In this document: in pieces, positions 1 to 14,679 of the stretch | Layout: each line of letters starts with the position of its first letter | Numbering within the stretch: position 1 is the stretch's first letter | From: a virus | Taxonomy: Duplodnaviria > Heunggongvirae > Uroviricota > Caudoviricetes | DNA: 15,060 bases | Virus record (IMG/VR): IMGVR_UViG_2875683775_000007 | Reading direction: 5' to 3' (one strand) | Translations under genes and position numbers: made by a program | Notes under the pieces: model-generated | What the model was told of the DNA's origin: nothing | Seen by the model: the letters and a program-made list of their open reading frames with translations, nothing else | Database searches by the model: none

Positions 1-201
1 TTACCCATTGGCGCGGCTTAAGAGCTTATTTTTGAATTCACAATGGTCACGATATAACCATCTTGCTCGCCCGTGGATAACTTTGGCTTTTGGAAGGTCT
101 CCGGACTTAATCCGATCATAGATGAAGGTTTTACCGAAGCCAGTATCGGCCATGATGAATTTCAAATCAACCAGTGAATCAGGCTGTAGTTCGTGTTGCA
201 T
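1..201 (-). CDS. torI: AlpA/TorI-family excisionase (recombination directionality factor), 66 aa
   Basis: Complete 66-aa ORF with stop at 1-3 and ATG at 199-201, preceded by GGAGA about 9 nt upstream. Small basic winged-helix-like protein typical of AlpA/Xis family; sequence matches my recollection of E. coli TorI of the argW prophage KplE1. Same strand as intS, as expected for the unusual KplE1/Sf6/HK620 recombination module. Confidence 0.6.
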   Translation of the reverse strand: MQHELQPDSLVDLKFIMADTGFGKTFIYDRIKSGDLPKAKVIHGRARWLYRDHCEFKNKLLSRANG

Positions 202-220
202 GAGTGCTATCTCCGAATAG

Positions 221-236
221 GGAATCGAACCTGCAA
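221..236. repeat. 16-bp exact direct copy (GGAATCGAACCTGCAA) of the argW T-arm segment found at 11310-11325; att core-like sequence
   Basis: Exact 16/16 identity between 221-236 and 11310-11325 in the same orientation; flanks on both sides are unrelated. Not a full tRNA, because no acceptor or complementary T-stem strand follows. Confidence 0.6.
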
Positions 237-246
237 ATCAGGTAAT

Positions 247-267
247 AAAAAAACCGCATTGATGCGG
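247..267 (-). terminator. Rho-independent terminator downstream of the 325-669 gene (minus strand)
   Basis: Inverted repeat CCGCA/TGCGG (254-267) with a run of 7 A on the plus strand (247-253), which is a 7-U tail on the minus-strand transcript. Confidence 0.55.
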
Positions 268-324
268 CGATGGTAGGTCTGGATATCTTGATAAATGAAA
301 ATGCCTCATCGAGTGTGAGGCGGG

Positions 325-669
325 TTAGTCCTTGCGTAGCTCGCTGATTCTTCTGTAAGTCTCTGGTGCTTTGTTCCCGTACGTCTTCATTTCAGACTTC
401 AACAGAGCAACGAGTGAATCCCATTCGTTGAGGATTCCTTTGAATGCCGGAACGCGCTTTGCAACCTTGTCGAATGAATCTCTGATTTCTGGAATCTGCT
501 CAACAAGTGCAACGCATCGTCGGAAATCGGCTGCGTCATGTGGAGCGCCGAAGCTATGACCATAGATATTCTTTTTCAGTCCACATGCGATTGAGGCAAG
601 AGTTGCGCTACTGATGCCTACATCGCCAGTCGATTGCCATTTCAAAACCTTCATAGCCAAATCTGACAT
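325..669 (-). CDS. Hypothetical prophage protein (about 114 aa from MSDLAMKV start)
   Basis: Open frame with GGAGA RBS 6-10 nt upstream of the ATG at 667-669; the ORF-track start at 696 lies in the terminator hairpin and is less likely. No family recognised. Confidence 0.5.
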   Translation of the reverse strand: MSDLAMKVLKWQSTGDVGISSATLASIACGLKKNIYGHSFGAPHDAADFRRCVALVEQIPEIRDSFDKVAKRVPAFKGILNEWDSLVALLKSEMKTYGNKAPETYRRISELRKD

Positions 670-683
670 TTCTTGTCTCCAAT

Positions 684-706
684 AAAAAACCGCCATCAGG
701 CGGTTT
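684..706 (-). terminator. Hairpin with flanking A/T runs; terminator-like on the minus strand, weaker on the plus strand
   Basis: Stem CCGCC (690-694) / GGCGG (699-703), preceded by an A-run (684-689) and followed by TTT; on the minus strand this is a hairpin plus a U-run just upstream of the RBS of the 325-669 gene. Confidence 0.45.
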
Positions 707-1115
707 GGTGTTCTTTCTGTTCTTCAATTCGAATATTGGTTACGTCTGCATGCGCTATCTACGCCCATATCATCCAGTGGTTATAGCAGTCGTTGATGTC
801 CTCTGCTTCGATAACCCTGAGACGGTCGCAAGATGGCTTGATGCTATGGCAAACCTTGAGCGACGAAACGCGCAGTTTAATGAGTTTAAAGCCGAGTGGA
901 TGAGCGCGAATGGCAACCCTGGACAATCGCGTAATGGCGGTCAGATATTGGGGTTGGATGTTAAAAAAGGTGAATCATTGGGGAGTGCCGTTAAGCGGTA
1001 TATGTCAATGAATACTGACGCAGCGCCAGCACAAGATTCGACACCTTCAGGAGAACCACGGAATCAGGTTGGATCATATACATCAAAATCAGGCATTCAA
1101 TTTACGGTGGAATGA
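705..1115 (+). CDS. Small ORF translationally coupled to the downstream gp16-like gene; possibly the 5'-truncated 3' end of a gp20-like ejection-protein gene
   Basis: Stop TGA at 1113-1115 overlaps the ATG of the next gene (ATGATG). The first ~20 codons run through the terminator hairpin and look non-coding, so the real coding start, if any, is later (for example the MANLERRN region). Position matches P22 gene 20 immediately upstream of gene 16. Confidence 0.3.
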
Positions 1116-2953
1116 TGAAAGTAACTGCAAACGGTAAGACATTTACCTTTCCTGATGGTACGAGCACCGAAGATATTGGCACCGCCATTGATGAGTATTT
1201 TGCTGGTCAGGCTGTTCAGCAACAAACAGTTAATCAGGCCAATAATGCACCAACACGGGAAGAGCCATCATTGATCCAACAAGCTGGCGATTGGCTCACT
1301 GGTGGTCAAAGTGCAGGGCAAATTGCAGAACAGGCTGGTCGTGGTCTGGTAAACATACCATTTGACGTATTGCAGGGCGGCGCAAGTCTGATTAATGCAA
1401 TCAGTCAGGGGCTTGGTGGACCCAAGGTTTTGGATGATGTTTATCGTCCAGTAGACAGACCGACAGACCCCTACGCGCAAGCCGGTGAAACAATTGGTGG
1501 GTATTTAGTTCCAGGAGTTGGAACGGCAGGAAGCATGGCTATTGGATCACTGGCAGAGGCCGCAAATCAGAAAGGCGATTTCGCACAAAATGCAGCTAAA
1601 AATGCCGGAGTTAACCTTGCCACTCAGGGTGTTCTTTCCGCAGCAGCAAAGGGAATAGGGCGTGGAATAACGGCTATAAAAGGTGATATTGCGCCAGAAG
1701 TGGCGAAGAAAATTACCACATCAGAATCGATGGGCGTGACACCAATGACATCTGATGTTATCCCGCCGAAAAATGCTTTCACTCGCGGCCTAACTCAGGA
1801 TGCCGAGGGGGCTTTGCTCGGGACAGGCTCAAAGCGAGCGGAGCAATATGCAACGCGTAGTAAGCTGGTAAGTAATTATTTTGACCGTTTTGGTGAGTAC
1901 AACCCTGATGATGTGGTGAAATCTCTTACCACCACGTTAAGGGGGCGGAAGGATGCCGCTGGCGCTGTTATCAATGACGTCACCAATAAAATGGGTAATG
2001 CCGCAGTTGATACCACAAATACCATGAATGCTCTGAATACAGCGATCGCAAGACAGGAACGGCTTGGGACGTCTGCCAATCAAAGCCTGCTTACATCCTT
2101 GCGTAACCTACGTGAAGAATTAGCAAACCCTGCAACTGATTTGGATGTTACGTTTGATCTCTTGCGTCAGCACAGAACAGCATTTAGATCTAATGTTCAG
2201 GGAGATGCTATGGTCTTCCCCAACCAGGCAAAAGCAGCTACCAATATGGTAGAGAATGCAATGTCAAAAGACCTTCGTAACGCAGTTGCTAAAAACCTCG
2301 GTGCATCAGACGCAGCAAAATACCTTAAAGCAAATTCCGATTATGCAAACGTTTATAATAAGGTGCTTAATAAAAACATTGCTAACAAGCTCAACAAGGC
2401 AAGCAGTGAAGCCAGTCCTGAACTTATAAATACCGTTGTATTAAGCAGAAAACCATCTGACGTGAAACGAATATGGAGCGCCCTGGATGATAAAGGGAAA
2501 GATGCTATGCGTGCAGCTTACGTCAGCAAAATAGCGGAAAAGGCCGGTGACTCTCCAGCCAAGTTCATCACTGAAGTTAATAAGCTGAAATCTCAGTCAG
2601 GCGGTGAAATTTACAACACTATTTTTTCTGGAAAGCACATGAAAGAGCTTGATGCTCTTCATGAAGTTCTACAGCAAACAGCAAGGTCAGACACCGCAAA
2701 TGTAGTAACTCAGACGGGGCAATCACAAGCCAACAGGATAAGGACGATTGGCGCAACTGCGACTCTTGGTGTATCAATGGGGCTTGAGGCTGGCTTTGGT
2801 GCAATGATGCGTTTGTATGAGTCCAAAGCAGCAAGGAATGCTCTCTTACGTCTGGCAAACACTAAAGCTGGAACGCCAGCCTATGAAAGAGCGTTGAGTA
2901 ACGCTGCAAATGCCATCAGGCCGCTGCTTGCTACTGAGGCAACACAGCAGTAA
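1112..2953 (+). CDS. Phage DNA ejection/internal virion protein, P22 gp16-like (613 aa)
   Basis: 613-aa Ala/Gly/Gln-rich protein of almost the size of P22 gp16 (609 aa), located immediately upstream of the immI/moron region as in P22 gene order; GGTGGA RBS before ATGATG. Assignment is by size and synteny, not sequence recall. Confidence 0.5.
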
Positions 2954-2977
2954 CGTATGGGGAATTGGATTCAATCG

Positions 2978-3367
2978 TTAACATTTTCTTTTTACTTTTC
3001 CAACAAAAGCTTTGGTTGAATCCATATTCCCATAACCAGAAATGGTTTTCGACATTAAAACTGTTCCATTAGGATGTATTACCCATGAGTCGATAACTCG
3101 TTGAGTTTCGCCATTCGCGCCGATTCCAATGATGGAGTTTTTAGACAATGCTTTGTAAGCCATGCCGCCCGCATCCGTCCCAGAATATGTGATACTGGCA
3201 TCTTCACCGTTTGTCTTAATGATGAATGTTCCACTAAAACCATCTTCTTCCGGTTGAAAATTATTTCGTTCTGAATAGCTTATTCCGTGCATATCTCCAA
3301 CGACCCAGCACTCTGCTGAGACAGAAAACGAGAAGACAAGGAAAGCCATTGCTATAATCAATTTCAT
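2978..3367 (-). CDS. Small secreted protein (cleavable signal peptide, 129 aa), function unknown; prophage moron
   Basis: N-terminus MKLIIAMAFLVFSFSVSA is a typical Sec signal with an AxA-type cleavage site; mature part has Cys near both ends. Lies with mnt on the minus strand in the slot where P22 carries sieA. Confidence 0.6.
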   Translation of the reverse strand: MKLIIAMAFLVFSFSVSAECWVVGDMHGISYSERNNFQPEEDGFSGTFIIKTNGEDASITYSGTDAGGMAYKALSKNSIIGIGANGETQRVIDSWVIHPNGTVLMSKTISGYGNMDSTKAFVGKVKRKC

Positions 3368-3382
3368 TTTAAGCCCTTATTG

Positions 3383-3718
3383 TTATTGATTCTTTTTGCA
3401 CGGAAATGTTTTTCCTACTGCTAGGGCGGTTAGTATAACTGCACTCTCATTTCTTGATTCTGGGTTTTTGTTTAGATATTTCTCAACGATATCGGTGTAT
3501 TGATACATGTCAACGCCATCAGGAGGACATAGAGAACCAATTAGTATCAATGAGTCAGTTACTCCGCGCAAATATCCAGTAATGTAAAGCGATGAAAAAT
3601 CATCACCCTTTTTACCTTGTTGAATGTTGTAAAGAAGGTCATTACCCGTTTGAAGCTCGCGCAGCTCAGCACTGGAAGAAGAGACAACTGCTAACAAGAA
3701 CAGTGATAGAAATCTCAT
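3383..3718 (-). CDS. Small secreted protein (signal peptide, 111 aa), function unknown; prophage moron
   Basis: N-terminus MRFLSLFLLAVVSSSSA is a Sec signal; two Cys in the mature part; its start overlaps the mnt stop by 4 nt, suggesting an operon with mnt. Confidence 0.6.
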   Translation of the reverse strand: MRFLSLFLLAVVSSSSAELRELQTGNDLLYNIQQGKKGDDFSSLYITGYLRGVTDSLILIGSLCPPDGVDMYQYTDIVEKYLNKNPESRNESAVILTALAVGKTFPCKKNQ

Positions 3719-3969
3719 TTCAAATCCTTTTCATAAATCTTTTTAAGTGTCTCAAACACTATAGCCTTGAACTGCTCAGCCTGCTGATCAGCCAAGCGTT
3801 CAGCTTCGTCGCGATATCCTGTAATCGGTGATGGTTTTGATAGTGCATCCTGAACGATTTGTAATAACTCAGAGTTCATTGACCTTCCGTTAGCCTCGGC
3901 TCTTAATTTCAATTTTTCTCTTACTTCCAAAGGCATACGGAAGTTAAAGTGCGGATCATCTCTAGCCAT
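3715..3969 (-). CDS. mnt: Mnt repressor (P22 immI)
   Basis: Protein begins MARDDPHFNFRMP...RAEANGRSMNSELLQIVQDALSKPSP, recognisably P22 Mnt (ribbon-helix-helix); GGAG RBS 9 nt upstream; divergent from arc. Confidence 0.85.
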   Translation of the reverse strand: MARDDPHFNFRMPLEVREKLKLRAEANGRSMNSELLQIVQDALSKPSPITGYRDEAERLADQQAEQFKAIVFETLKKIYEKDLK

Positions 3970-3991
3970 GCCATCACTCCAAGTTAGTGTA

Positions 3992-4021
3992 TTGACATGA
4001 TAGAAGCACTCTACTATATTC
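3992..4021 (+). promoter_or_regulatory. Pant promoter (-35 TTGACA 3992-3997, -10 TATATT 4015-4020) overlapping the Arc operator ATGATAGAAGCACTCTACTAT (3997-4017); divergent Pmnt elements overlap on the minus strand
   Basis: Consensus -35 and near-consensus -10 with 17-bp spacer; the 21-bp spacer/operator sequence matches the P22 arc operator as I recall it. On the minus strand TTGAGA (4020-4025) and TATCAT (3997-4002) form a plausible Pmnt. Confidence 0.7.
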
Positions 4022-4026
4022 TCAAT

Positions 4027-4043
4027 AGGTCCACCGTGGACCT
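4027..4043. promoter_or_regulatory. Mnt operator, perfect 17-bp palindrome AGGTCCACCGTGGACCT
   Basis: Perfect dyad centred at 4035, between Pant and the arc start, matching the known P22 Omnt sequence and position. Confidence 0.75.
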
Positions 4044-4059
4044 ATATTGTGAGGTGAAC

Positions 4060-4221
4060 ATGAAAGGAATGAGCAAAATGCCACAGTTCAATTTGCGGTG
4101 GCCTAAAGAAGTATTGGATTTGGTACGCAAGGTGGCGGAAGAAAATGGTCGGTCTGTTAATTCTGAGATTTATCAGCGAGTAATGGAAAGCTTTAAGAAG
4201 GAAGGGCGCATTGGTGCGTAA
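4060..4221 (+). CDS. arc: Arc repressor (P22 immI), 53 aa
   Basis: MKGMSKMPQFNLRWPKEVLDLVRKVAEENGRSVNSEIYQRVMESFKKEGRIGA is P22 Arc-like throughout; GAGGTG RBS at 4051-4056. The ORF-track start at 3997 lies in the operator and is rejected. Confidence 0.9.
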   Translation: MKGMSKMPQFNLRWPKEVLDLVRKVAEENGRSVNSEIYQRVMESFKKEGRIGA

Positions 4222-4289
4222 AGTTGAAGCCCCAACTGCTGTAACAGTCAGGGCTTCGGCATCAACAAATCGGATTAGGAAATATTGAC
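4222..4289 (-). ncRNA. sar: Candidate sar-like antisense RNA covering the ant RBS
   Basis: Minus-strand promoter-like elements (-10 TATACT, complement of 4296-4301; weak -35) would start transcription near the ant start codon; inverted repeat GAAGCCC/GGGCTTC at 4226-4258 sits about 65 nt downstream. Matches the known arrangement of P22 sar, but the terminator lacks a clear U-run. Confidence 0.3.
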
Positions 4290-5168
4290 ATGAAAAGTAT
4301 AGCAAAGGCACAAAACGATTTCACCATCTTCAAATTCGGCGACAGTGAAATCCGCGTCATCAACAAGTGCGGTGAGCCGTGGTTTGTAGCTAAAGATGTT
4401 TGTGATGCTTTAGATTTGACTAACTCACGCAAGGCGCTTACTGCACTTGATGACGATGAAAAGGGAGTAACTTTAAGTTACACCCTTGGTGGTGAGCAGA
4501 ATCTAAGCATTGTGAGCGAATCAGGTATGTATACATTGGTTCTGCGCTGCCGCGATGCAGTCAATAAAGGTTCAGTCCCGCACAAATTCCGCAAGTGGGT
4601 AACAGCAGAAGTTCTGCCTTCAATTCGCAAACATGGCGAGTATGTAAAAGGAAAGAAAACCACTGTTGAGGAAAGAACACCGCTACGCGATGCAGTAAAC
4701 ATGCTGGTAGGAAAGAAAGGACTTCGCTATGACGATGCATACAATATGGTTCATCAGCGTTTTGGTATTGACAGCATTGATGAACTTTCAATTGAACAAA
4801 TCCCGCTGGCCGTAGAGTACATCCACAGGGTAGTGCTTGAAGGTGAGTTCATTGGCAAACAAGAGAAGAAAACCAACGAGCTTTCTGCAAAAGAAGCAAA
4901 CAGCCTTGTATGGTTATGGGATTATGCCAACCGCTCACAGGCATTATTCCGCGAACTGTATCCGGCGCTAAAACAAATTCAATCGAACTATTCCGGCAGA
5001 TGCTACGACTACGGTCATGAATTCTCGTATGTTATCGGAATGGCGAGAGACGTTTTAATAAACCACACACGAGATGTTGATATCAATGAGCCAGACGGAC
5101 CAACGAATCTTTCCGCATGGATGAGACTTAAGAATAAAGAATTACCTCCTTCAGTACATAACTACTGA
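4290..5168 (+). CDS. ant: Antirepressor Ant (Bro-N domain protein)
   Basis: N-terminal region ([26 protein letters not shown]) is a Bro-N/antirepressor motif; directly downstream of arc as in P22; AGGAAA RBS. Confidence 0.8.
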
Positions 5169-5187
5169 CAGATAACCAACGCAACGA

Positions 5188-5210
5188 CCCAGCTTCGGCT
5201 GGGTTTTTTT
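5188..5210 (+). terminator. Rho-independent terminator after ant
   Basis: CCCAGC-TTCG-GCTGGG hairpin followed by 7 T. Confidence 0.8.
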
Positions 5211-5269
5211 ATGCCCAAAATTCACCGTAGCTACGCTGCGGCGATTCCTTGTATCTGGAGCAAATTAAA

Positions 5270-7918
5270 ATGACAGATTCAATAAATGCCAATGTTGTGG
5301 TAAGCATGCCTTCTCAACTCTTCACTATGGCGCGTTCTTTTAAAGCCGTAGCCAATGGTAAAATTTATATCGGTAAAATTGACACTGATCCGGTAAATCC
5401 AGAAAACCAGATTCAGGTTTATGTGGAGAACGAAGACGGCTCTCACGTTCCTGTTTCTCAACCAATCATCATTAACGCTGCTGGTTATCCGGTATATAAC
5501 GGACAGATTGCCAAATTCGTTACCGTGCAAGGCCATTCTATGGCTGTTTATGATGCGTATGGTGCACAGCAGTTCTATTTTCCTAATGTGCTGAAGTATG
5601 ACCCGGATCAGTTTAAACAAAAAGTATTATCAAATGATATGCTAAATATGTCTCCTCTTTATTTTGGAGCTAAGGGGGATGGGATTAGCGATGATACTGA
5701 AGCATTTGTCGCGTTGGAAATGGATATAAAAAATAGGGTTATTGATTTAAGTGGAAGAGCATTTTTTGTTACTAAAAGTTTTATTGGAAATAGCTATATA
5801 AATGGTTCTTTTATTCGTGATGGCAGTAAACGAATTGCGATTGGTGATCTTAAATTAAGAGATAAAAGAGAGCCGTTGATATTTTCCGGAATGCCAAAAG
5901 TATATAACACCAGACACACGTTGCGCAGAACTGAAGGTGCGGGTGGTTTATATGCGGTCATTCAGGGGTGTTGTTATGATGAAATTAACGACAAGATTTT
6001 TACTTTATCATCTACCACAGCATACGGTTATTGCATTAATGCCTTTGACGTGACGAATTCTGGTGAACTAGGAAGATACGACAGAACCCGTTCTACTGAA
6101 CTTGGGCATCAGGGGCTTGGATTGCATCATAATCCTGATGGTACTGTCGTGCTGTGGACATCGAAGCCTTATGGAACCGATGCCGCCAATCAATGTATTT
6201 CGATGGAAAATATATTGAGTTACACAGGGACAACCAACGGAGTATCTGAAGGTTTTATCACCTGGAAGTTGTTCCCCTATGATGGAATGAGCGCAAGCTC
6301 TACTCCAGCTGTATCAAGTTGTGAAAACTATCTACTTGCCAAGAAAATTTCATCGGATGGAATTACCTGCACGGTTCGTGTTTTCGACATAGTCAGCATG
6401 TGGAATAACAGAGCTCATAAAACTGATTATAGTGATGATTATTTAGTTGAGTTTAGCTATCAAAAACCATCACAAGAAGCATTTACCCAATCAATTGCTT
6501 GCGATGGGGCATACATTTACATACTTGAGTCACATACGTATGTTGGCATGACTAATTATATTTACGTATTTGCCTTAACAGGCAGGTTTATTGAGCGAGT
6601 AGATATTTCAACTGTTGGTGATGATGAAGCAAAATCTGACAGTACAGGAACTCCTGTTTATAAAGAGCCTGAGTCCCTAACAGTAATTAGAACGGAGAGT
6701 GGGTATGTTTTAACGCTGGGGATATGCACATATAAAGGAGTTGCTGAGAACGGGAAAAATGTATATCTGTTTGATATAGGCAGGTCTGGTTCGGTAGTGC
6801 AAAGCAAAGCAAGCCGTTCTGTATCCAGTAATACTGGTCTTCATAGTTCTGGCTCCCCGGAGTTCAAATATGGAGTAAGGGAGTACAATGATACTTTTCA
6901 CTGGACAGTTTGGCCAACAAGAAAGGGTTTTCAAACTAACCGGGATAACCCTATATTGTTTCTTGATGGCGGAATTACTGGTGGAATGCAGTTAGCTTCA
7001 AACGGCACGGAAGGGATGAGCAACTCATGGGTTTCCCGGCATCAGTCAGACACCGCAGAAGGACCAAGAGCAATAATGTATAAGTCTCGCTCTGGTGTTG
7101 TATCAACTGATAATTTTGGAGCTCTGCAGACAGGGGATGTATTGGGTACTCATGTATGGGCCGGTGATACAGGTAGTAAGGCTGTGCAATGCGCACACAT
7201 TAAATGCGTCACAAGAGGTAATCCTTCCGGAGACAATATCCCGGTTGCTTTCTACTTTGGAACCATGGGAGAGAGTGACGGCTTGCGTGACAGATGGGTA
7301 TTAACAGAATTAGGTCATTTTCGACCATCAGGTTCAAATCTTTATGATATTGGTACACAGTCGAATACTGTCAGAAACCTGTATATAAATAATAGCCCCA
7401 TTGTAACCAGCGACAGAAATTATAAGCAGGATGAAGCTTCATTATCTGATGCAGAACTACGGGTTGGAATGGCTATTTACCCGCTGATAAAAAAATTCAG
7501 AATGAAGGATGCTGTAAAAGAAAAAGGCTTGTCAGCGCGTGAGCATATCGGTGTAATTGCGCAAGATATACAATCCATCTTTGAATCTGAGGGGCTTGAT
7601 GCATTTTCTTATGGGGTTCTTTGCTATGAAGAGTGGGATGATGAGTATGAGAAAGTCTATGCAACAAGAAATGTGACCAGAAAAATTTTAATTGATGAAG
7701 AGTCTGGTCAGTATGATGAAATCACAGAGGAAGAAGAGTATGAAACTGGTGAAGTAAGGTTAATTATGGAATCAGGAAGAAAATTATCAGTGCGCTATGA
7801 CGAGTTAATGTTTCTGGCAATGAGCGCACTATATCATCACCATGAGCAGGATATTGCCAATATCACATCAAAGATTAATAATCTGGAAAAATTATTAAAG
7901 TTAACACTAAATGGTTGA
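5270..7918 (+). CDS. Tailspike protein: P22 gp9-like head-binding N-terminus, right-handed beta-helix (pectate-lyase-like) receptor domain, C-terminal intramolecular chaperone (peptidase S74-like) domain
   Basis: [44 protein letters not shown] is near-identical to the P22 tailspike N-terminus as recalled; [14 protein letters not shown] is the hallmark start of pectate-lyase-type beta-helix domains; C-terminal ~150 aa (SDAELRVG...[12 protein letters not shown]...) resemble the auto-cleaving chaperone domain of endosialidases and tail fibres. Start chosen at 5270 (GGAG RBS) rather than 5249. Confidence 0.85.
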
Positions 7919-7964
7919 TATGTGGTACTTTTAATGTATGCCCAGCTACATGCTGGGCAATGTT

Positions 7965-9080
7965 TTAAATTTCAGCTATAAAACCTTCATAATTATTTTG
8001 TAAAAAAGGTTTGATGAACTTACGCTGAGGGGTATAAATCATATCCTGATTTACTAAATCTGAGCGGATATTGAAAGTGGTTGAGAGCATGTTAAAGAAC
8101 ATCCTTTTCTTTTGCTCGTTGCCACCTGCTTTACCACATACCTTTTCCATCATTTCAAGGCATATCACCAGCCACGCATTGTAAAGCTTGGCCTTTTCTT
8201 CGTTAGTTTTTCCGCAAAAGTAAATCGTGTTAATAACCGAGTTAAGAATGAAGTGTCTATCTTCAAGAGGAAATTTTTGCCTTGATAAATGACCATTACC
8301 ATGGAATGTTAAATGATAATAATCTTTGTCAGCAAGAATAGATATATTGTTTGCTACAGATAGAGATTGAACCATAAATATTTTATCTTCAGCTACGGTG
8401 ATAGCTGGGTTGAAGAGAATGTTATGCTCTTTAAGCATATTTCTTCGGAAGAATTTGAAAATAGTTAACGACCGCAAGAGGTGATGCTTGGTTATATCTG
8501 CCTTATCTACAATTTTCACCTTGTATGGACGGATAGGCACCTCGCGATTACCATCTGATGCAATTTTGAAGTAAACAATATCACTATTATTTTTATCAGC
8601 AATATGAACCCCTCTCTCAAGAAGAGTTTCGTCAATATAGTCATCGGAATCCATGAAGAAAATATAACGCCCTTTTGCTGCTTTTATCCCCTCATTTCGC
8701 GGGGTTGAAGCGTTACCTGAACCAATTTCTCGGCGAATAATTCTGTAGTTAATATCCGGTGCTATATTATATTCTATAGCAGCAATGCTTTTGTCACTTG
8801 AACAATCATCGACAAAAATAACCTCAAAGCGATCCTTATTAATTGTTTGGTTATTAAGTGAGTTAATGCATTTAAGAATAAGTTTTTCACGATTATGAAC
8901 AGGGATAACAACTGACACATCTAATGGGCAAAAATGGTTAATCTCATTAACTACAGTCGTTATTTTAGTAAAAGCCGCCAACAAAGCTGTTGTTAAATCA
9001 GTAGAAGATAAAAGGCTTTCTTTTTTAGTATTAGCTTTTATGTTAAAATAGAACCAATTATTACGAGGTACAAAATCCAC
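7965..9080 (-). CDS. Family-2 glycosyltransferase catalytic-domain ORF (downstream part of phase-variable gene; frame stays open upstream through the repeat)
   Basis: VSVVIPVHNRE...FEVIFVDDCSSD...FFMDSDDYID are GT2 (GT-A fold) signature motifs including the DxD. The ORF-track M at 9080 is a GTG with no RBS; in this frame the sequence reads (SQPA)n-FVSV upstream with no stop. Gene is visibly AT-rich compared with the flanking chromosome. Confidence 0.8.
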   Translation of the reverse strand: MDFVPRNNWFYFNIKANTKKESLLSSTDLTTALLAAFTKITTVVNEINHFCPLDVSVVIPVHNREKLILKCINSLNNQTINKDRFEVIFVDDCSSDKSIAAIEYNIAPDINYRIIRREIGSGNASTPRNEGIKAAKGRYIFFMDSDDYIDETLLERGVHIADKNNSDIVYFKIASDGNREVPIRPYKVKIVDKADITKHHLLRSLTIFKFFRRNMLKEHNILFNPAITVAEDKIFMVQSLSVANNISILADKDYYHLTFHGNGHLSRQKFPLEDRHFILNSVINTIYFCGKTNEEKAKLYNAWLVICLEMMEKVCGKAGGNEQKKRMFFNMLSTTFNIRSDLVNQDMIYTPQRKFIKPFLQNNYEGFIAEI

Positions 9081-9082
9081 GC

Positions 9083-9433
<351 letters not shown>

Positions 9434-9976
9434 TGTACAACCTCTATTGTTAGCAATGTTTATTGGTATTCAAAAATAAGGCGCTAATATTGGGGCCACC
9501 ATATCTTTGTCGTGTTTAATTATTGTTTGGCCATTCGCATCACGCTTTGCTATGTGGCGTAATATTATTTATGAGTGCGAATAGTTTCGCTTGTTATTGT
9601 TTTGCTGGTCATAAGTTTGACATAGTCAAATCCACAGAATATCATTTAAGTATATCTAAGAGCCGAGCATTATATGTGCGCATGTATTGGATGTGAAGGT
9701 CGAGCATTAGTCCGGGATGTCATATATTCCTGAAAAGGTAACATGCTTAATAATTGCTAAGAAAGTACATACCTAATCTGAAAGAGTCTGGCTATAGGTT
9801 TGCGCACAAGATCATAGAACTTGTTTTGTTTATAGATAGCACAACATATGGATTTAGTTGAAATTGCATGGATGATTTGATCGCAGGAACTCAGAATTGC
9901 AGATGAGACAAAACTGAGACACACAAAGCTTTGCACTGGATTGCAAGACTTTGTGCTATTCGATAGTTAAGGTGTA

Positions 9977-11134
9977 TCACTCCACCTTTTCATCAATCCA
10001 GTCCGCCCACCACTGCATCATTTCTCTGCGCTTATCTAGATACTGAGCATGGTTGTAAATCCCGCGCACAGATCCGCCGTTGGCATGTGCCAGTTGCACT
10101 TCAATGGCGTCGGCGGGCCATTCGTGCTCGTTCATAATCGTGCTGAATTCATGCCTGAATCCGTGACCGCTTTCCAGACCTTCATAGCCGATTTTTTTGA
10201 TCACAAGCAGTACCGCATTCTCGCAGATTGGCTTCTTCTTATCGTTGCGACCGGCAAAAACAAACTCTGATACTGGTTTAGTGATTGAGCTTAGCGTAGT
10301 GAGAAGTTCAACTACCTGGTCTGACATAGGAACCACATGAATTTTGCGTCCCTTCATCACACTGGCGTCGATGGTGATAATCCTGTTTTCAAAATCGACG
10401 TTCTTCCATAGCATGGAACGAAGCTCTTTCGTTCTTAGGGCTGTGTAGCGCAAAACTTTAGTCGCAATGAGCGATACGATGCTTCCTGAAAATGTTGCAA
10501 GTGCTTTGTTGAATGCCGGGATCTGGTCGGCAGGAAGAAACGGGAAGTTCTTCTTGCGGTATCCCTTCATGGCGTCAGCAAGGTCAGGTGCTGGGTTATA
10601 TTTAGCCCTGCCGGTGACAATAGCGTAACGGAAAACCTCGCCGCATCTTCTGCGGGCTTTGTTGGCTCGCTCCATTGCACCGCGATCTTCGAATCTGCGG
10701 ATTACTTCCAGCAGTTGCATCGGCTCAATATCCTGAATCTCAAGGCCGCCGATGATGGGCAAAATGTCGTCATCAAACATTTTGGCAAGTTCAGTTGCAT
10801 AGCCTACTGACCAGACTTGCTTCTTGTGCTCGTACCATTCCTTGTAAATCGCACTAAATGAATTGTTGTTAGACGAAGCCTTTTTCGCCTTTACCGGGTC
10901 GATGCCAACCGAGATGTCTTTCCTCGCGGTCCATGCTTTATCCCTTGCTTCCTGCAAAGTCATAAGCGGATATTTTCCGACGGTCAGGATTTTCTCCTTA
11001 CCGTCAATCTTGTAGCGAAGCTGCCATACCTTTTTCCCTGACACAGGGACATAAAGGTACAGGCCATTACCATCGAGTAGGCGGTATGGTTTTTCTTTCG
11101 GCTTTGCTGCTTCAATCTGCTTAACGGTGAGCAT
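9977..11134 (-). CDS. intS: P4/KplE1-type tyrosine integrase (385 aa from MLTVKQIE start)
   Basis: Adjacent to the 3' end of argW and co-oriented with it; N-terminus and length match IntS of the argW prophage as I recall it; C-terminal region carries the tyrosine-recombinase catalytic domain. An alternative upstream GTG start at 11170 (ORF track) cannot be excluded. Confidence 0.85.
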   Translation of the reverse strand: MLTVKQIEAAKPKEKPYRLLDGNGLYLYVPVSGKKVWQLRYKIDGKEKILTVGKYPLMTLQEARDKAWTARKDISVGIDPVKAKKASSNNNSFSAIYKEWYEHKKQVWSVGYATELAKMFDDDILPIIGGLEIQDIEPMQLLEVIRRFEDRGAMERANKARRRCGEVFRYAIVTGRAKYNPAPDLADAMKGYRKKNFPFLPADQIPAFNKALATFSGSIVSLIATKVLRYTALRTKELRSMLWKNVDFENRIITIDASVMKGRKIHVVPMSDQVVELLTTLSSITKPVSEFVFAGRNDKKKPICENAVLLVIKKIGYEGLESGHGFRHEFSTIMNEHEWPADAIEVQLAHANGGSVRGIYNHAQYLDKRREMMQWWADWIDEKVE

Positions 11135-11180
11135 GGGTAAAAATCCGGTGGGTAAAATTATTTTATCCACTTTTTACCCG
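11135..11180. promoter_or_regulatory. Clustered GGGTAAAA(A/T) motifs (two direct, one inverted) at the int start, in the attL/int promoter region
   Basis: GGGTAAAAA at 11135-11143, GGGTAAAAT at 11150-11158, inverted copy CTTTTTACCC at 11171-11180; candidate integrase arm-type or RDF binding sites. Confidence 0.35.
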
Positions 11181-11295
11181 TCATGGAGTGCGGCTGTCAA
11201 CGATCTGACGCGAACCATTACGAACTGTGCATCTACAGAAGGCTTGATATTCAGGGGATTTTGCGGACTGGTACGGATGGGGGCGAACTGATAAA

Positions 11296-11370
11296 TGGTG
11301 TCCCCTGCAGGAATCGAACCTGCAATTAGCCCTTAGGAGGGGCTCGTTATATCCATTTAACTAAGAGGAC
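11296..11370 (-). tRNA. argW: tRNA-Arg (anticodon CCU), 75 nt including CCA
   Basis: Reverse complement reads GTCCTCTTAGTTAAATGGATATAACGAGCCCCTCCTAAGGGCTAATTGCAGGTTCGATTCCTGCAGGGGACACCA; cloverleaf with 7-bp acceptor stem, anticodon loop CUCCUAA, T-loop TTCGATT. Confidence 0.95.
11310..11325. other. attL core candidate inside argW (16 bp identical to 221-236)
   Basis: Exact direct repeat of the 221-236 sequence, located in the tRNA T-arm next to the integrase gene. Confidence 0.55.
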
Positions 11371-11445: not shown

Positions 11446-12378
11446 TTATGCCGGGTTTTTATAATTTTTCTTAATGTTTTCCGCACGTTCTGCTTTTTGG
11501 CGTGCTTCTGCTTTACGCTTATTGCTCATGTCGTTACGAATCTGTGCATGACTCATTAACGCGAAGATAAAGGTGCCGCCGCAGATGTTCCCCGCTAAAG
11601 TAGGTAGTGCGAAGGGCCAGATGAAATCGCTCCAGTGCAGCGTGCCGTTAAACACCAGATAGAGGATTTCAACAGAACCGACCACGATATGGGTGGTGTC
11701 ACCCAGGGCAATAAGCCAGGTCATCAATATAATCACCACAATCTTTGCCGCACCCGCTGCAGGAAACATCCAAACCATAGTGGCGATCAGCCAGCCGGAA
11801 ATGATCGCGTTGGCAAACATCTCGCTGGGGGTGTTCTTCATCACATCCATGCCGATTTTGACAAATGCATCGCGAGTTTCTTCATTGAAGATAGGCATAT
11901 ATTCAAATGCCCACGCCGCAATACCTGTCCCGAGAATATTACCCAGCAGCACGACGCCCCATAACCGTATAAGTAAGCCGACGTTGCTCATTGTCGGTTT
12001 TTGCATGACGGGTAGTACCGCAGTCACGGTATTTTCGGTAAATAATTGCTGGCGGGCCATAATGACGATAATAAAACCAAAGGTATAACCGAGATTCTCC
12101 AGCAAGAAGCTGCCCGGCACACCTTCCAGTTCGACATGAAATATCCCTTTTGCCAGTAACGAAGCGCCCATCGACAGACCCGCCGCAATGGCTGACCACA
12201 GTAGCGCCATTGCGTCGCGTTCCAGCTCTTTTTCACCATCCTGGCGGATATGCTCATGAATTGCCATCGCCCGGGAGGGGAGTCGGTCTTCATCTATTTC
12301 TATTTTTTTGCCGCGCTCTTTTTCTTCGCTCTCAACTTCAATTTCGTCGCTGTGTTGATCAATTTTGTCGTTGTCCAT
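11446..12378 (-). CDS. yfdC: Inner-membrane protein of the formate/nitrite transporter family
   Basis: 310-aa protein with acidic N-terminal tail followed by multiple hydrophobic helices; sequence and position next to argW match E. coli YfdC as recalled. Confidence 0.85.
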   Translation of the reverse strand: MDNDKIDQHSDEIEVESEEKERGKKIEIDEDRLPSRAMAIHEHIRQDGEKELERDAMALLWSAIAAGLSMGASLLAKGIFHVELEGVPGSFLLENLGYTFGFIIVIMARQQLFTENTVTAVLPVMQKPTMSNVGLLIRLWGVVLLGNILGTGIAAWAFEYMPIFNEETRDAFVKIGMDVMKNTPSEMFANAIISGWLIATMVWMFPAAGAAKIVVIILMTWLIALGDTTHIVVGSVEILYLVFNGTLHWSDFIWPFALPTLAGNICGGTFIFALMSHAQIRNDMSNKRKAEARQKAERAENIKKNYKNPA

Positions 12379-13911: not shown

Positions 13912-13966
13912 GGTGATGCTGCCAACTTACTGATTTAGTGTATGATGGTGTTTTTGAGGTGCTCCA

Positions 13967-14242
13967 GTGGCTTCTGTTTCTATCAGCTGTCCCTCCTGTT
14001 CAGCTACTGACGGGGTGGTGCGTAACGGCAAAAGCACCGCCGGACATCAGCGCTATCTCTGCTCTCACTGCCGTAAAACATGGCAACTGCAGTTCACTTA
14101 CACCGCTTCTCAACCCGGTACGCACCAGAAAATCATTGATATGGCCATGAATGGCGTTGGATGCCGGGCAACTGCCCGCATTATGGGCGTTGGCCTCAAC
14201 ACGATTTTACGTCACTTAAAAAACTCAGGCCGCAGTCGGTAA
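13967..14242 (+). CDS. insA: IS1 InsA (transposition inhibitor/N-terminal part of InsAB' transposase)
   Basis: 91-aa protein [23 protein letters not shown]... matches IS1 InsA. Confidence 0.9.
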
Positions 14243-14664
14243 CCTCGCGCATACAGCCGGGCAGTGACGTCATCGTCTGCGCGGAAATGGACGAACAGTG
14301 GGGCTATGTCGGGGCTAAATCGCGCCAGCGCTGGCTGTTTTACGCGTATGACAGTCTCCGGAAGACGGTTGTTGCGCACGTATTCGGTGAACGCACTATG
14401 GCGACGCTGGGGCGTCTTATGAGCCTGCTGTCACCCTTTGACGTGGTGATATGGATGACGGATGGCTGGCCGCTGTATGAATCCCGCCTGAAGGGAAAGC
14501 TGCACGTAATCAGCAAGCGATATACGCAGCGAATTGAGCGGCATAACCTGAATCTGAGGCAGCACCTGGCACGGCTGGGACGGAAGTCGCTGTCGTTCTC
14601 AAAATCGGTGGAGCTGCATGACAAAGTCATCGGGCATTATCTGAACATAAAACACTATCAATAA
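14161..14664 (+). CDS. insB: IS1 InsB reading frame (expressed as InsAB' transposase by programmed -1 frameshift)
   Basis: 167-aa frame [21 protein letters not shown]... matching IS1 InsB; overlaps the insA 3' end in the -1 frame. Confidence 0.85.
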
Positions 14665-14679
14665 GTTGGAGTCATTACC

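Follow-up and report, generated by a model that had tools for sequence, protein, structure and literature searches.

What happened to the prophage in which the gene for a P22-type ejection protein lies directly beside an oppositely oriented early-left gene and an excisionase gene? The window (the whole 15,060-nt stretch of DNA analysed here) has this arrangement in its first kilobase. A first-pass annotation, made from the letters alone, had proposed a large internal deletion that joined the ejection-protein operon to the excisionase-proximal end, with the breakpoint at a terminator hairpin. The features that it listed (a short coupled ORF, the hairpin, a minus-strand gene and the excisionase gene) are all present (Table 1). 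The homologies of the two flanks, together with an intact relative in E. coli STEC379, support such a deletion and place its joint elsewhere.

Table 1 Features of the window, with positions counted from its first base
Feature	Position	Strand	Remarks
torI/xis, excisionase (RDF)	1-201	-	66 aa, intact; phrog_66 excisionase
Terminator-like hairpin, ORF114/torI interval	253-268	-	Stem, then TTTTTTTATTA on the minus strand
ORF114, conserved lambdoid early-left gene	325-669	-	Intact; phrog_1229, E = 4.8e-51, full length
Hairpin, terminator-like on both strands	687-706		8-bp stem, 5 G-C pairs
ORF55/Eag-family remnant	696-815	-	phrog_676; alignment to HK022, 434 and STEC379 proteins
Chimeric open frame	705-1115	+	136 aa, TTG start; 35 antisense-ORF55 codons plus gp20 C-terminus
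Novel joint, ascribed to a deletion	810-819		One copy left of the short repeat GATAAC(C)CTG
Gene 20 (ejection protein) 3' fragment	813-1115	+	Last 100-101 codons and stop; STEC379 gp20, phrog_917
gp16-type ejection protein	1112-2953	+	613 aa, intact; phrog_770, full length, E = 1.2e-278
Accessory and immI block	2978-5168		Hypothetical (-), Rap1a/Tai-like (-), Mnt (-), Arc (+), Ant (+)
Tailspike (889 aa) and family-2 glycosyltransferase	5249-9080	Tailspike +, glycosyltransferase -	Pfam
intS-type tyrosine integrase	9977-11170	-	Intact; Pfam Arm-DNA-bind_3, Phage_int_M, Phage_integrase
argW, tRNA-Arg(CCT)	11295-11370	-	ARAGORN; right-hand prophage boundary
yfdC, mlaA, IS1	Right of argW

A prophage remnant between dsdC and argW

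The window is a 15-kb segment of E. coli-type chromosome. The published 16-nt att core of KplE1, CTGCAGGGGACACCAT (PMC2951348), was matched exactly at 11295-11310, inside argW. A 17.9-kb Logan contig from run SRR7631959, identical to window positions 1-8953 (100.000%, zero mismatches), runs leftward into a second core in direct orientation, 74-89 nt left of window position 1, and then into dsdC-dsdX-dsdA. Because one core lies in argW and a direct second copy lies next to dsdC, the 11.4 kb between dsdC and argW is a prophage remnant, namely a KplE1/CPS-53-like defective prophage, and we suggest that it be named a KplE1-like defective P22-type prophage in annotation.

One end of the element encodes the integrase and the other the RDF (TorI), as in KplE1, HK620 and Sf6 (PMC2951348). 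The torI product matches the annotated TorI of E. coli PSJ-29 (WP_001163428.1) residue for residue, and the integrase is annotated as IntS in relatives of 98% identity. The recombination module first described as retained does have its two genes intact, the integrase being not next to xis and instead at the far end by argW. As the two att cores are in place and IntS and TorI are intact, the remnant should in principle be excisable like KplE1. Beyond argW, downstream of mlaA, lies a 768-bp IS1 copy (13912-14679) with InsA and InsB Pfam matches and a 9-bp target duplication, which is missing from the otherwise collinear loci of PSJ-29 and NCCP12480.

The joint at 810-819 and its two parents

The left flank (1-819) comes from a lambdoid or P22-like prophage, of which it is the early-left end on the excisionase side. 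Among phage records, positions 248-819 matched the HK022 early-left region at 96.2% identity and that of 434 at 93.2%, and positions 1-743 matched the P22-like phage HZ41 at 96.5%. On the other side, 810-3200 compared with complete E. coli genomes reached at most 99.8% identity with the gp20-gp16 region of P22-like prophages. The two flank homologies overlap by 10 bases and no single record spans both sides.

The same chromosomal site is occupied in E. coli STEC379 by a 40-kb P22-like prophage that appears complete, with torI, early-left, immC, replication, nin, lysis, terminase, portal, scaffold and coat genes followed by gp4, gp10, gp26, gp14, gp7, gp20, gp16 and onward. Window positions 1-268 and 680-819 aligned to its positions 11887-12153 and 12129-12268, and 810-4799 aligned to 42012-46001 (99.3%). 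In this locus (L006) the left parental site lies at 12259-12268 and the right at 42012-42021, in the same orientation; the repeat copies are 29,753 bp apart and the full early, replication, lysis and head set lies between them. Comparison with an intact relative had been suggested in the first-pass annotation as a way to locate the breakpoint, and it returned just this: P22 gene order, with the parental points some 29.75 kb apart. Since ORF114 is absent from STEC379 and its tailspike is a different one, it counts as a relative rather than the direct parent.

To define the joint at nucleotide level, both STEC379 parental sites, HK022 and strain 2-1 were used as alignment inputs. In the ungapped three-way alignment the left parent reads CTGCTTCGATAACTCTG and then TTGAATGG, the right parent GACATGGATAACCCTG and then AGACGGTC, and the window CTGCTTCGATAACCCTGAGACGGTC. 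At the joint itself the left parent has GATAACTCTG and the right parent GATAACCCTG, and the switch from left to right parent is clean, falling inside GATAACCCTG. All five native left parents (5/5) read GATAACTCTG, with T at 816; the parental sites therefore share GATAAC exactly and 9/10 positions over GATAACYCTG. The same short sequence is thus found at both parental sites and in one copy at the joint, the pattern that defines a short-homology event. The joint lies about 105 bases inside the ORF, not at the ORF start or the hairpin where the breakpoint had been placed.

None of 5,426 complete E. coli genomes carried the joint (megablast; 80% cover of 600-1050), and a GTDB scan of one genome per species returned no match to the exact junction. 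The joint is therefore private to one lineage and undatable, and at nucleotide level it is usable as a marker of that lineage.

The proposed deletion and its consequences

The alignments show directly from which parents the two flanks come, where the joint lies, what its sequence is and that the ORF is chimeric. We consider it very probable that 810-819 is the novel joint of one deletion of about 30 kb (29,753 bp measured against STEC379) in a P22/HK620/Sf6-like prophage at argW. Its left end would lie within ORF55/Eag, an early-left gene, and its right end within codons 367-370 of gene 20, a late gene. The two would have been fused through a short direct repeat, GATAAC(T/C)CTG (6 exact bases, 9/10 overall), of which one copy would have been kept. 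The pathway would be RecA-independent, short-homology illegitimate recombination, and we infer replication slippage or microhomology end joining as its mechanism. A single step is likewise the presumed course, unprovable as it is because the joint shows the last event only.

The genes lost in this way would be the rest of the early-left region, pL/pR, the immC repressor (in STEC379 a LexA-family protein, L006 20223-20939), the replication, nin, lysis, terminase and head genes, gp26, gp14, gp7 and 78% of gp20. With pL/pR, the immC repressor, replication, lysis and all head genes deleted, the element can give no particles and no lambda-type immunity. TorI, IntS, both cores, gp16, Mnt/Arc/Ant, the tailspike and the glycosyltransferase are intact. 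The '20-16 late fragment is probably transcriptionally silent, since the late promoter is gone and upstream of it on the plus strand there are only the hairpin and the minus-strand genes ORF114 and torI.

This kind of event is already well understood; it is textbook prophage decay, of which the window is another instance. In the classical lacI studies, spontaneous deletions reportedly occurred between short direct repeats, often beside palindromes. The joint resembles these deletions in its 6-10 bp repeat at both sites, in the one copy kept and in the inverted repeat adjoining the endpoint. The classical model does not, however, predict that the gp20 endpoint recurs with partners that share only 2 nt.

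A recurrent breakpoint in gene 20

Protein searches with the chimeric ORF found chimeras whose gp20 parts all start at one residue (NPETVARWL) and whose N-termini differ, being replication protein O, gp7, the gp20 N-terminus and one unidentified frame. Altogether, A813/A814 of gp20 (A, followed by ACCCTGAGACGG) is the crossover point in six independent deletions, each with a left partner of its own and a microhomology of only 2-6 nt. The left partners are antisense ORF55 in the window (shared GATAAC), repO in L010-L012 (native GATA followed by GTCAG; shared GATA), gp7 in L013 and L014 (shared AA), a site in the gp26/gp14 region in L016 and L017 (shared AA, possibly AACCC), the gp20 N-terminus in L018 (shared TAA) and a lambda-type cII in L069 (shared AA). 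A813 is the sole base common to all six overlaps, so one crossover point, between 812 and 813 or between 813 and 814, explains all six. These junctions stand in different prophage backgrounds and at different integration sites, and several of them come from independent assemblies of different samples.

About ten other gp20-truncating junctions (P0002, P0007, P0011, P0014, P0024, P0026, P0028, L179, L180 and PSJ-29) are scattered over the gene. The share at A813/A814 is thus 6 of the ~16 gp20-truncating junctions that we found in a 1.4-kb gene. This is far beyond chance, of the order of 1e-9 under uniform breakpoints, a rough figure that is indicative only because the junctions were collected unsystematically. 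Because the right breakpoint of the window coincides with those of five other independent deletions, microhomology alone would seem not to have set its position.

The deletion may accordingly be real and yet have had its right end fixed by a site-specific break or stall at A813/A814, not by a chance microhomology search. Such an origin would refine the internal-deletion explanation without replacing it: the candidates (nuclease cleavage or polymerase stalling directed by the hairpin, a gyrase site, a different sequence-specific nuclease) would each give a fixed end, re-annealed through 1-6 terminal bases to a variable left site. We regard it as a real possibility, though one that falls short of probable. 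The shared crossover with its six partners and diverse backgrounds argues for it, as does the scatter of the other truncations. In addition, the retained gp20 arm starts exactly at the 3' arm (814-827, ACCCTGAGACGGTC) of an imperfect 14-bp hairpin whose 5' arm is 781-794, and the GATAAC of ORF55 is reused elsewhere with a different partner. The hairpin is modest, however: the local fold of native gp20 has -12.5 kcal/mol with z = -2.4 on the plus strand and z of only -1.2 on the minus strand, and no nuclease or recognition site has been identified.

The way in which the cases were gathered also weighs against a fixed break. They came mainly from the protein search, which favours short open chimeras, and all six junctions are from draft or Logan assemblies; the repO and gp7 junctions, like that of the window, had no match by megablast in the 5,426 complete E. 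coli genomes (0/5,426 for each of the three tested). Among ~160 unselected right-arm loci, all were native at the hot spot except L069, and pattern scans of IMG/VR for non-native bases to the left of the hot spot returned L069 only. A search for proteins that match gp20 to the left of the hot spot and differ beyond it found none, in what was a tiny sample.

Several specific causes were considered and rejected. For CRISPR I-E (ATG PAM at 807-809, spacer from 810), no such spacer was found: the best repeat-spacer-repeat match in complete genomes was 88.8% and there was no array. For a type IIS enzyme (GAGACG at 819-824, top-strand cut between 813 and 814), the site is absent at the other junctions and the common A813 would fall outside the retained fragment. 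A secondary site for IntS is a misfit, with 9/16 positions of the joint matching the att core by eye and variable partners, and the TorI/IntS binding motifs (GTTCG-type, TAAA) are unlike GATAAC.

As speculation, nuclease cleavage of the hairpin, or the stalling of a nascent strand, might fix a minus-strand 3' end at the 5' side of the minus-strand loop, and this end might then re-anneal by its last few bases to variable left sites. The recurrence has the look of a sequence-determined fragile site at A813/A814 of P22-type gene 20. We go further only tentatively: that such a site starts repeated leftward deletions which inactivate the prophage strikes us as rather unlikely. If it were true, the nick or stall there would be hairpin- or enzyme-directed, gp16, immI, the tailspike, the O-antigen modification gene and the integrase would always be spared, and prophage 'domestication' at the locus would be partly stereotyped and not random. 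Should the recurrent breakpoint withstand a census, it would mean that local DNA structure or a specific nuclease can channel prophage inactivation, and such channelling would help to explain the common gp16-to-integrase block in many E. coli strains.

Two further observations concern these sequences. On the minus strand the hot spot, TTATCCATG, resembles a DnaA box. In another strain (L015, 6154-6159) the GATAAC of ORF55 (810-815 in the window) is the left breakpoint of a different deletion, of 26.4 kb, whose other end is a GATAAC of gp10 that sits at the base of a stable hairpin (z about -3).

The left flank and its hairpins

The first hairpin of the left flank (253-268) corresponds to the annotated terminator of phage 434. 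ORF114, which follows, is a homologue of the 114-aa genes of HK022 and 434; the program-made list extends it to 696, and the ATG that bears a Shine-Dalgarno sequence is at 669-667. The second hairpin (687-706) beats shuffled sequence (z = -4.4 on the plus strand, z = -3.0 on the minus strand), is followed by TTTTTTATT on the minus strand and a weaker tail on the plus strand, and occupies the gap from the ORF55 stop codon to the ORF114 ribosome-binding site. This is the hairpin that had been taken for the junction. It is native between ORF55 and ORF114, and its sequence is also found in HK022, 434 and the intact STEC379 prophage. Judged by these comparisons it is a native early-left element and no product of the rearrangement. 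It is most likely a terminator that is read through under antitermination, and on the minus strand (706-687) it would shield ORF114 and torI from leftward read-through. The ORF55 remnant has lost its first ~18 codons to the deletion and has an in-frame TAG at 759-761.

The ORF114 cassette (248-706) is flanked by the two related terminator hairpins. The STEC379 prophage is without this cassette and has one hairpin only, as its two window alignments overlap by 25 nt. The cassette has the look of a terminator-bounded insertion or deletion of the moron type.

The left flank is closest to the siphovirus-type lambdoid phages HK022 and 434, which could suggest that the joint arose by recombination between two resident prophages, one lambdoid and one P22-like, or between a prophage and an incoming phage. 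A comparable remnant beside sbcB in E. coli strain 2-1 (L001), with a right arm 99.7% identical to window 810-5245 and a different integrase, points the same way, since it means that modules move between sites. We nevertheless judge this origin very unlikely. The torI-ORF114 segment also occurs in the P22-like HZ41, where it adjoins the intS homologue, and torI-ORF114-ORF55 was found in prophages at the window's own locus. Moreover, the two outer boundaries, dsdC-core-torI and intS-core-argW, are those normal for a single prophage there, so that no host DNA is missing or rearranged.

Still less probable than recombination between two phages is an assembly chimera. A junction over a short microhomology could mimic a mis-join, and no complete genome carries the joint, but it is identical in two independent runs (SRR7631959 and SRR7686591) processed by a different pipeline, on a contig with 0 mismatches over 8,953 bases in the former, and a 6-10-bp overlap is far under the k-mer overlap of any assembler.

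The chimeric frame and the retained right arm

Residues 36-136 of ORF 705-1115 are identical to residues 368-468 of the 468-aa STEC379 gp20, and the frame matched the ejection-protein profile phrog_917 over positions 411-509 of 509 only. This agrees with the first-pass suggestion that only the C-terminal part of an ejection protein would be found, and the fragment falls short of a full-length gp20 (about 430-480 aa; Inj_translocase, phrog_917). Residues 1-35 are the ORF55/Eag gene (phrog_676) read antisense. At its other end the ATGA of the frame overlaps the ATG of the gp16-like gene at 1112, which is the native 20/16 junction.

That the frame is a genuine small gene naturally preceding gene 16 can practically be dismissed: 136 open codons and the preserved ATGA overlap speak for it, but homologues exist for residues 36-136 only and are the C-termini of 430-480-aa proteins, the first 35 residues are antisense ORF55, no Shine-Dalgarno sequence is recognisable at any in-frame start, and the exact protein, called as a 121-aa version starting with the ATG at 750, is recorded in just one 1-kb Logan contig. 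A complete, conserved small protein in the same gene order in intact phages, the result that the first-pass annotation had set against its own proposal, was not what we found. From its make-up, the frame reads as a by-product of the deletion, to be marked in annotation as a gene-20 pseudogene fragment fused to antisense ORF55.

Beyond the frame, 608 residues of gp16 are identical to STEC379 gp16. The block at 2978-5168 has Pfam matches to Rap1a, Arc/Repressor_Mnt, Arc and Bro-N/P22_AR_C, in the gene order of its relatives. The immunity region had been described as retained; immI (mnt/arc/ant) does survive, and the immC repressor is deleted. The tailspike and glycosyltransferase, also described as retained, are both in place. 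The tailspike has head-binding and Peptidase_S74 domains, and an exact look-up of the protein found it not on record.

Positions 5600-9950 (the C-terminal part of the tailspike, the GT2 gene and a repeat ORF) are 99.9% identical to a block in E. coli GMF054 (L008), where the block sits in a different, IS911-disrupted P22-like remnant between torS and torT. On this identity, the cassette for receptor binding and modification appears to have moved between prophages. Directly upstream of the GT2 gene (7965-9080), a perfect (TGGC)47.5 repeat occupies 9090-9279, inside a minus-strand ORF (9083-9433). The same locus in GMF054 has (TGGC)70.5, so the copy number varies. This (ASQP)n leader ORF ends 2 nt before the glycosyltransferase ORF and, since the unit is not a multiple of three, a change in TGGC copy number shifts the frame of the leader. 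The repeat may thus be a phase-variation switch for prophage-encoded surface glycosylation, which, if true, would be unusual for E. coli.

Relation to known elements

The element shares with KplE1/CPS-53 of E. coli K-12 the argW site, the core CTGCAGGGGACACCAT, the layout in which intS and torI take opposite ends, and the absence of the immC repressor; KplE1 measures 10.2 kb and the element of the window 11.4 kb (PMC2951348). Unlike KplE1, it has a P22-type '20-16-immI-tailspike block and ORF114. The K-12 element presumably keeps gtr-like genes, tail-fibre and other fragments. A different prophage at KplE1's site decayed independently to give the element of the window.

Intact P22-like argW prophages (Lederbergvirus, HK620/Sf6-type; STEC379) and HZ41 agree with the window in gene order to the left and to the right of the joint, and the right arm of the window is 99.3% identical to such prophages over 4 kb. 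They differ in having about 29.75 kb between the points that are fused in the window.

A P22-like prophage is also mostly deleted in the German E. coli O104:H4 outbreak strain, where the tailspike and an adjacent O-antigen modification gene are left, and it is complete in the close relative 55989 (PMC3303846). That remnant belongs to another strain, with another tailspike and an acetylase where the window has a GT2 glycosyltransferase, and PMC3303846 describes it without a nucleotide-level junction.

Differently deleted remnants are common at the argW locus. The remnant of PSJ-29 has several internal deletions, that of NCCP12480 keeps immC and has lost the head genes, and the deletions in 20AR0300 (L180) and AUSMDU00014361 (L179) reach into dsdX and into the host csc sucrose permease, respectively. 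Deletions that leave the prophage (L179, L180 and protein P0028) create host-phage fusion ORFs. In strain 2-1, beside sbcB, the deletion joins Eag to a truncated tail-needle gene.
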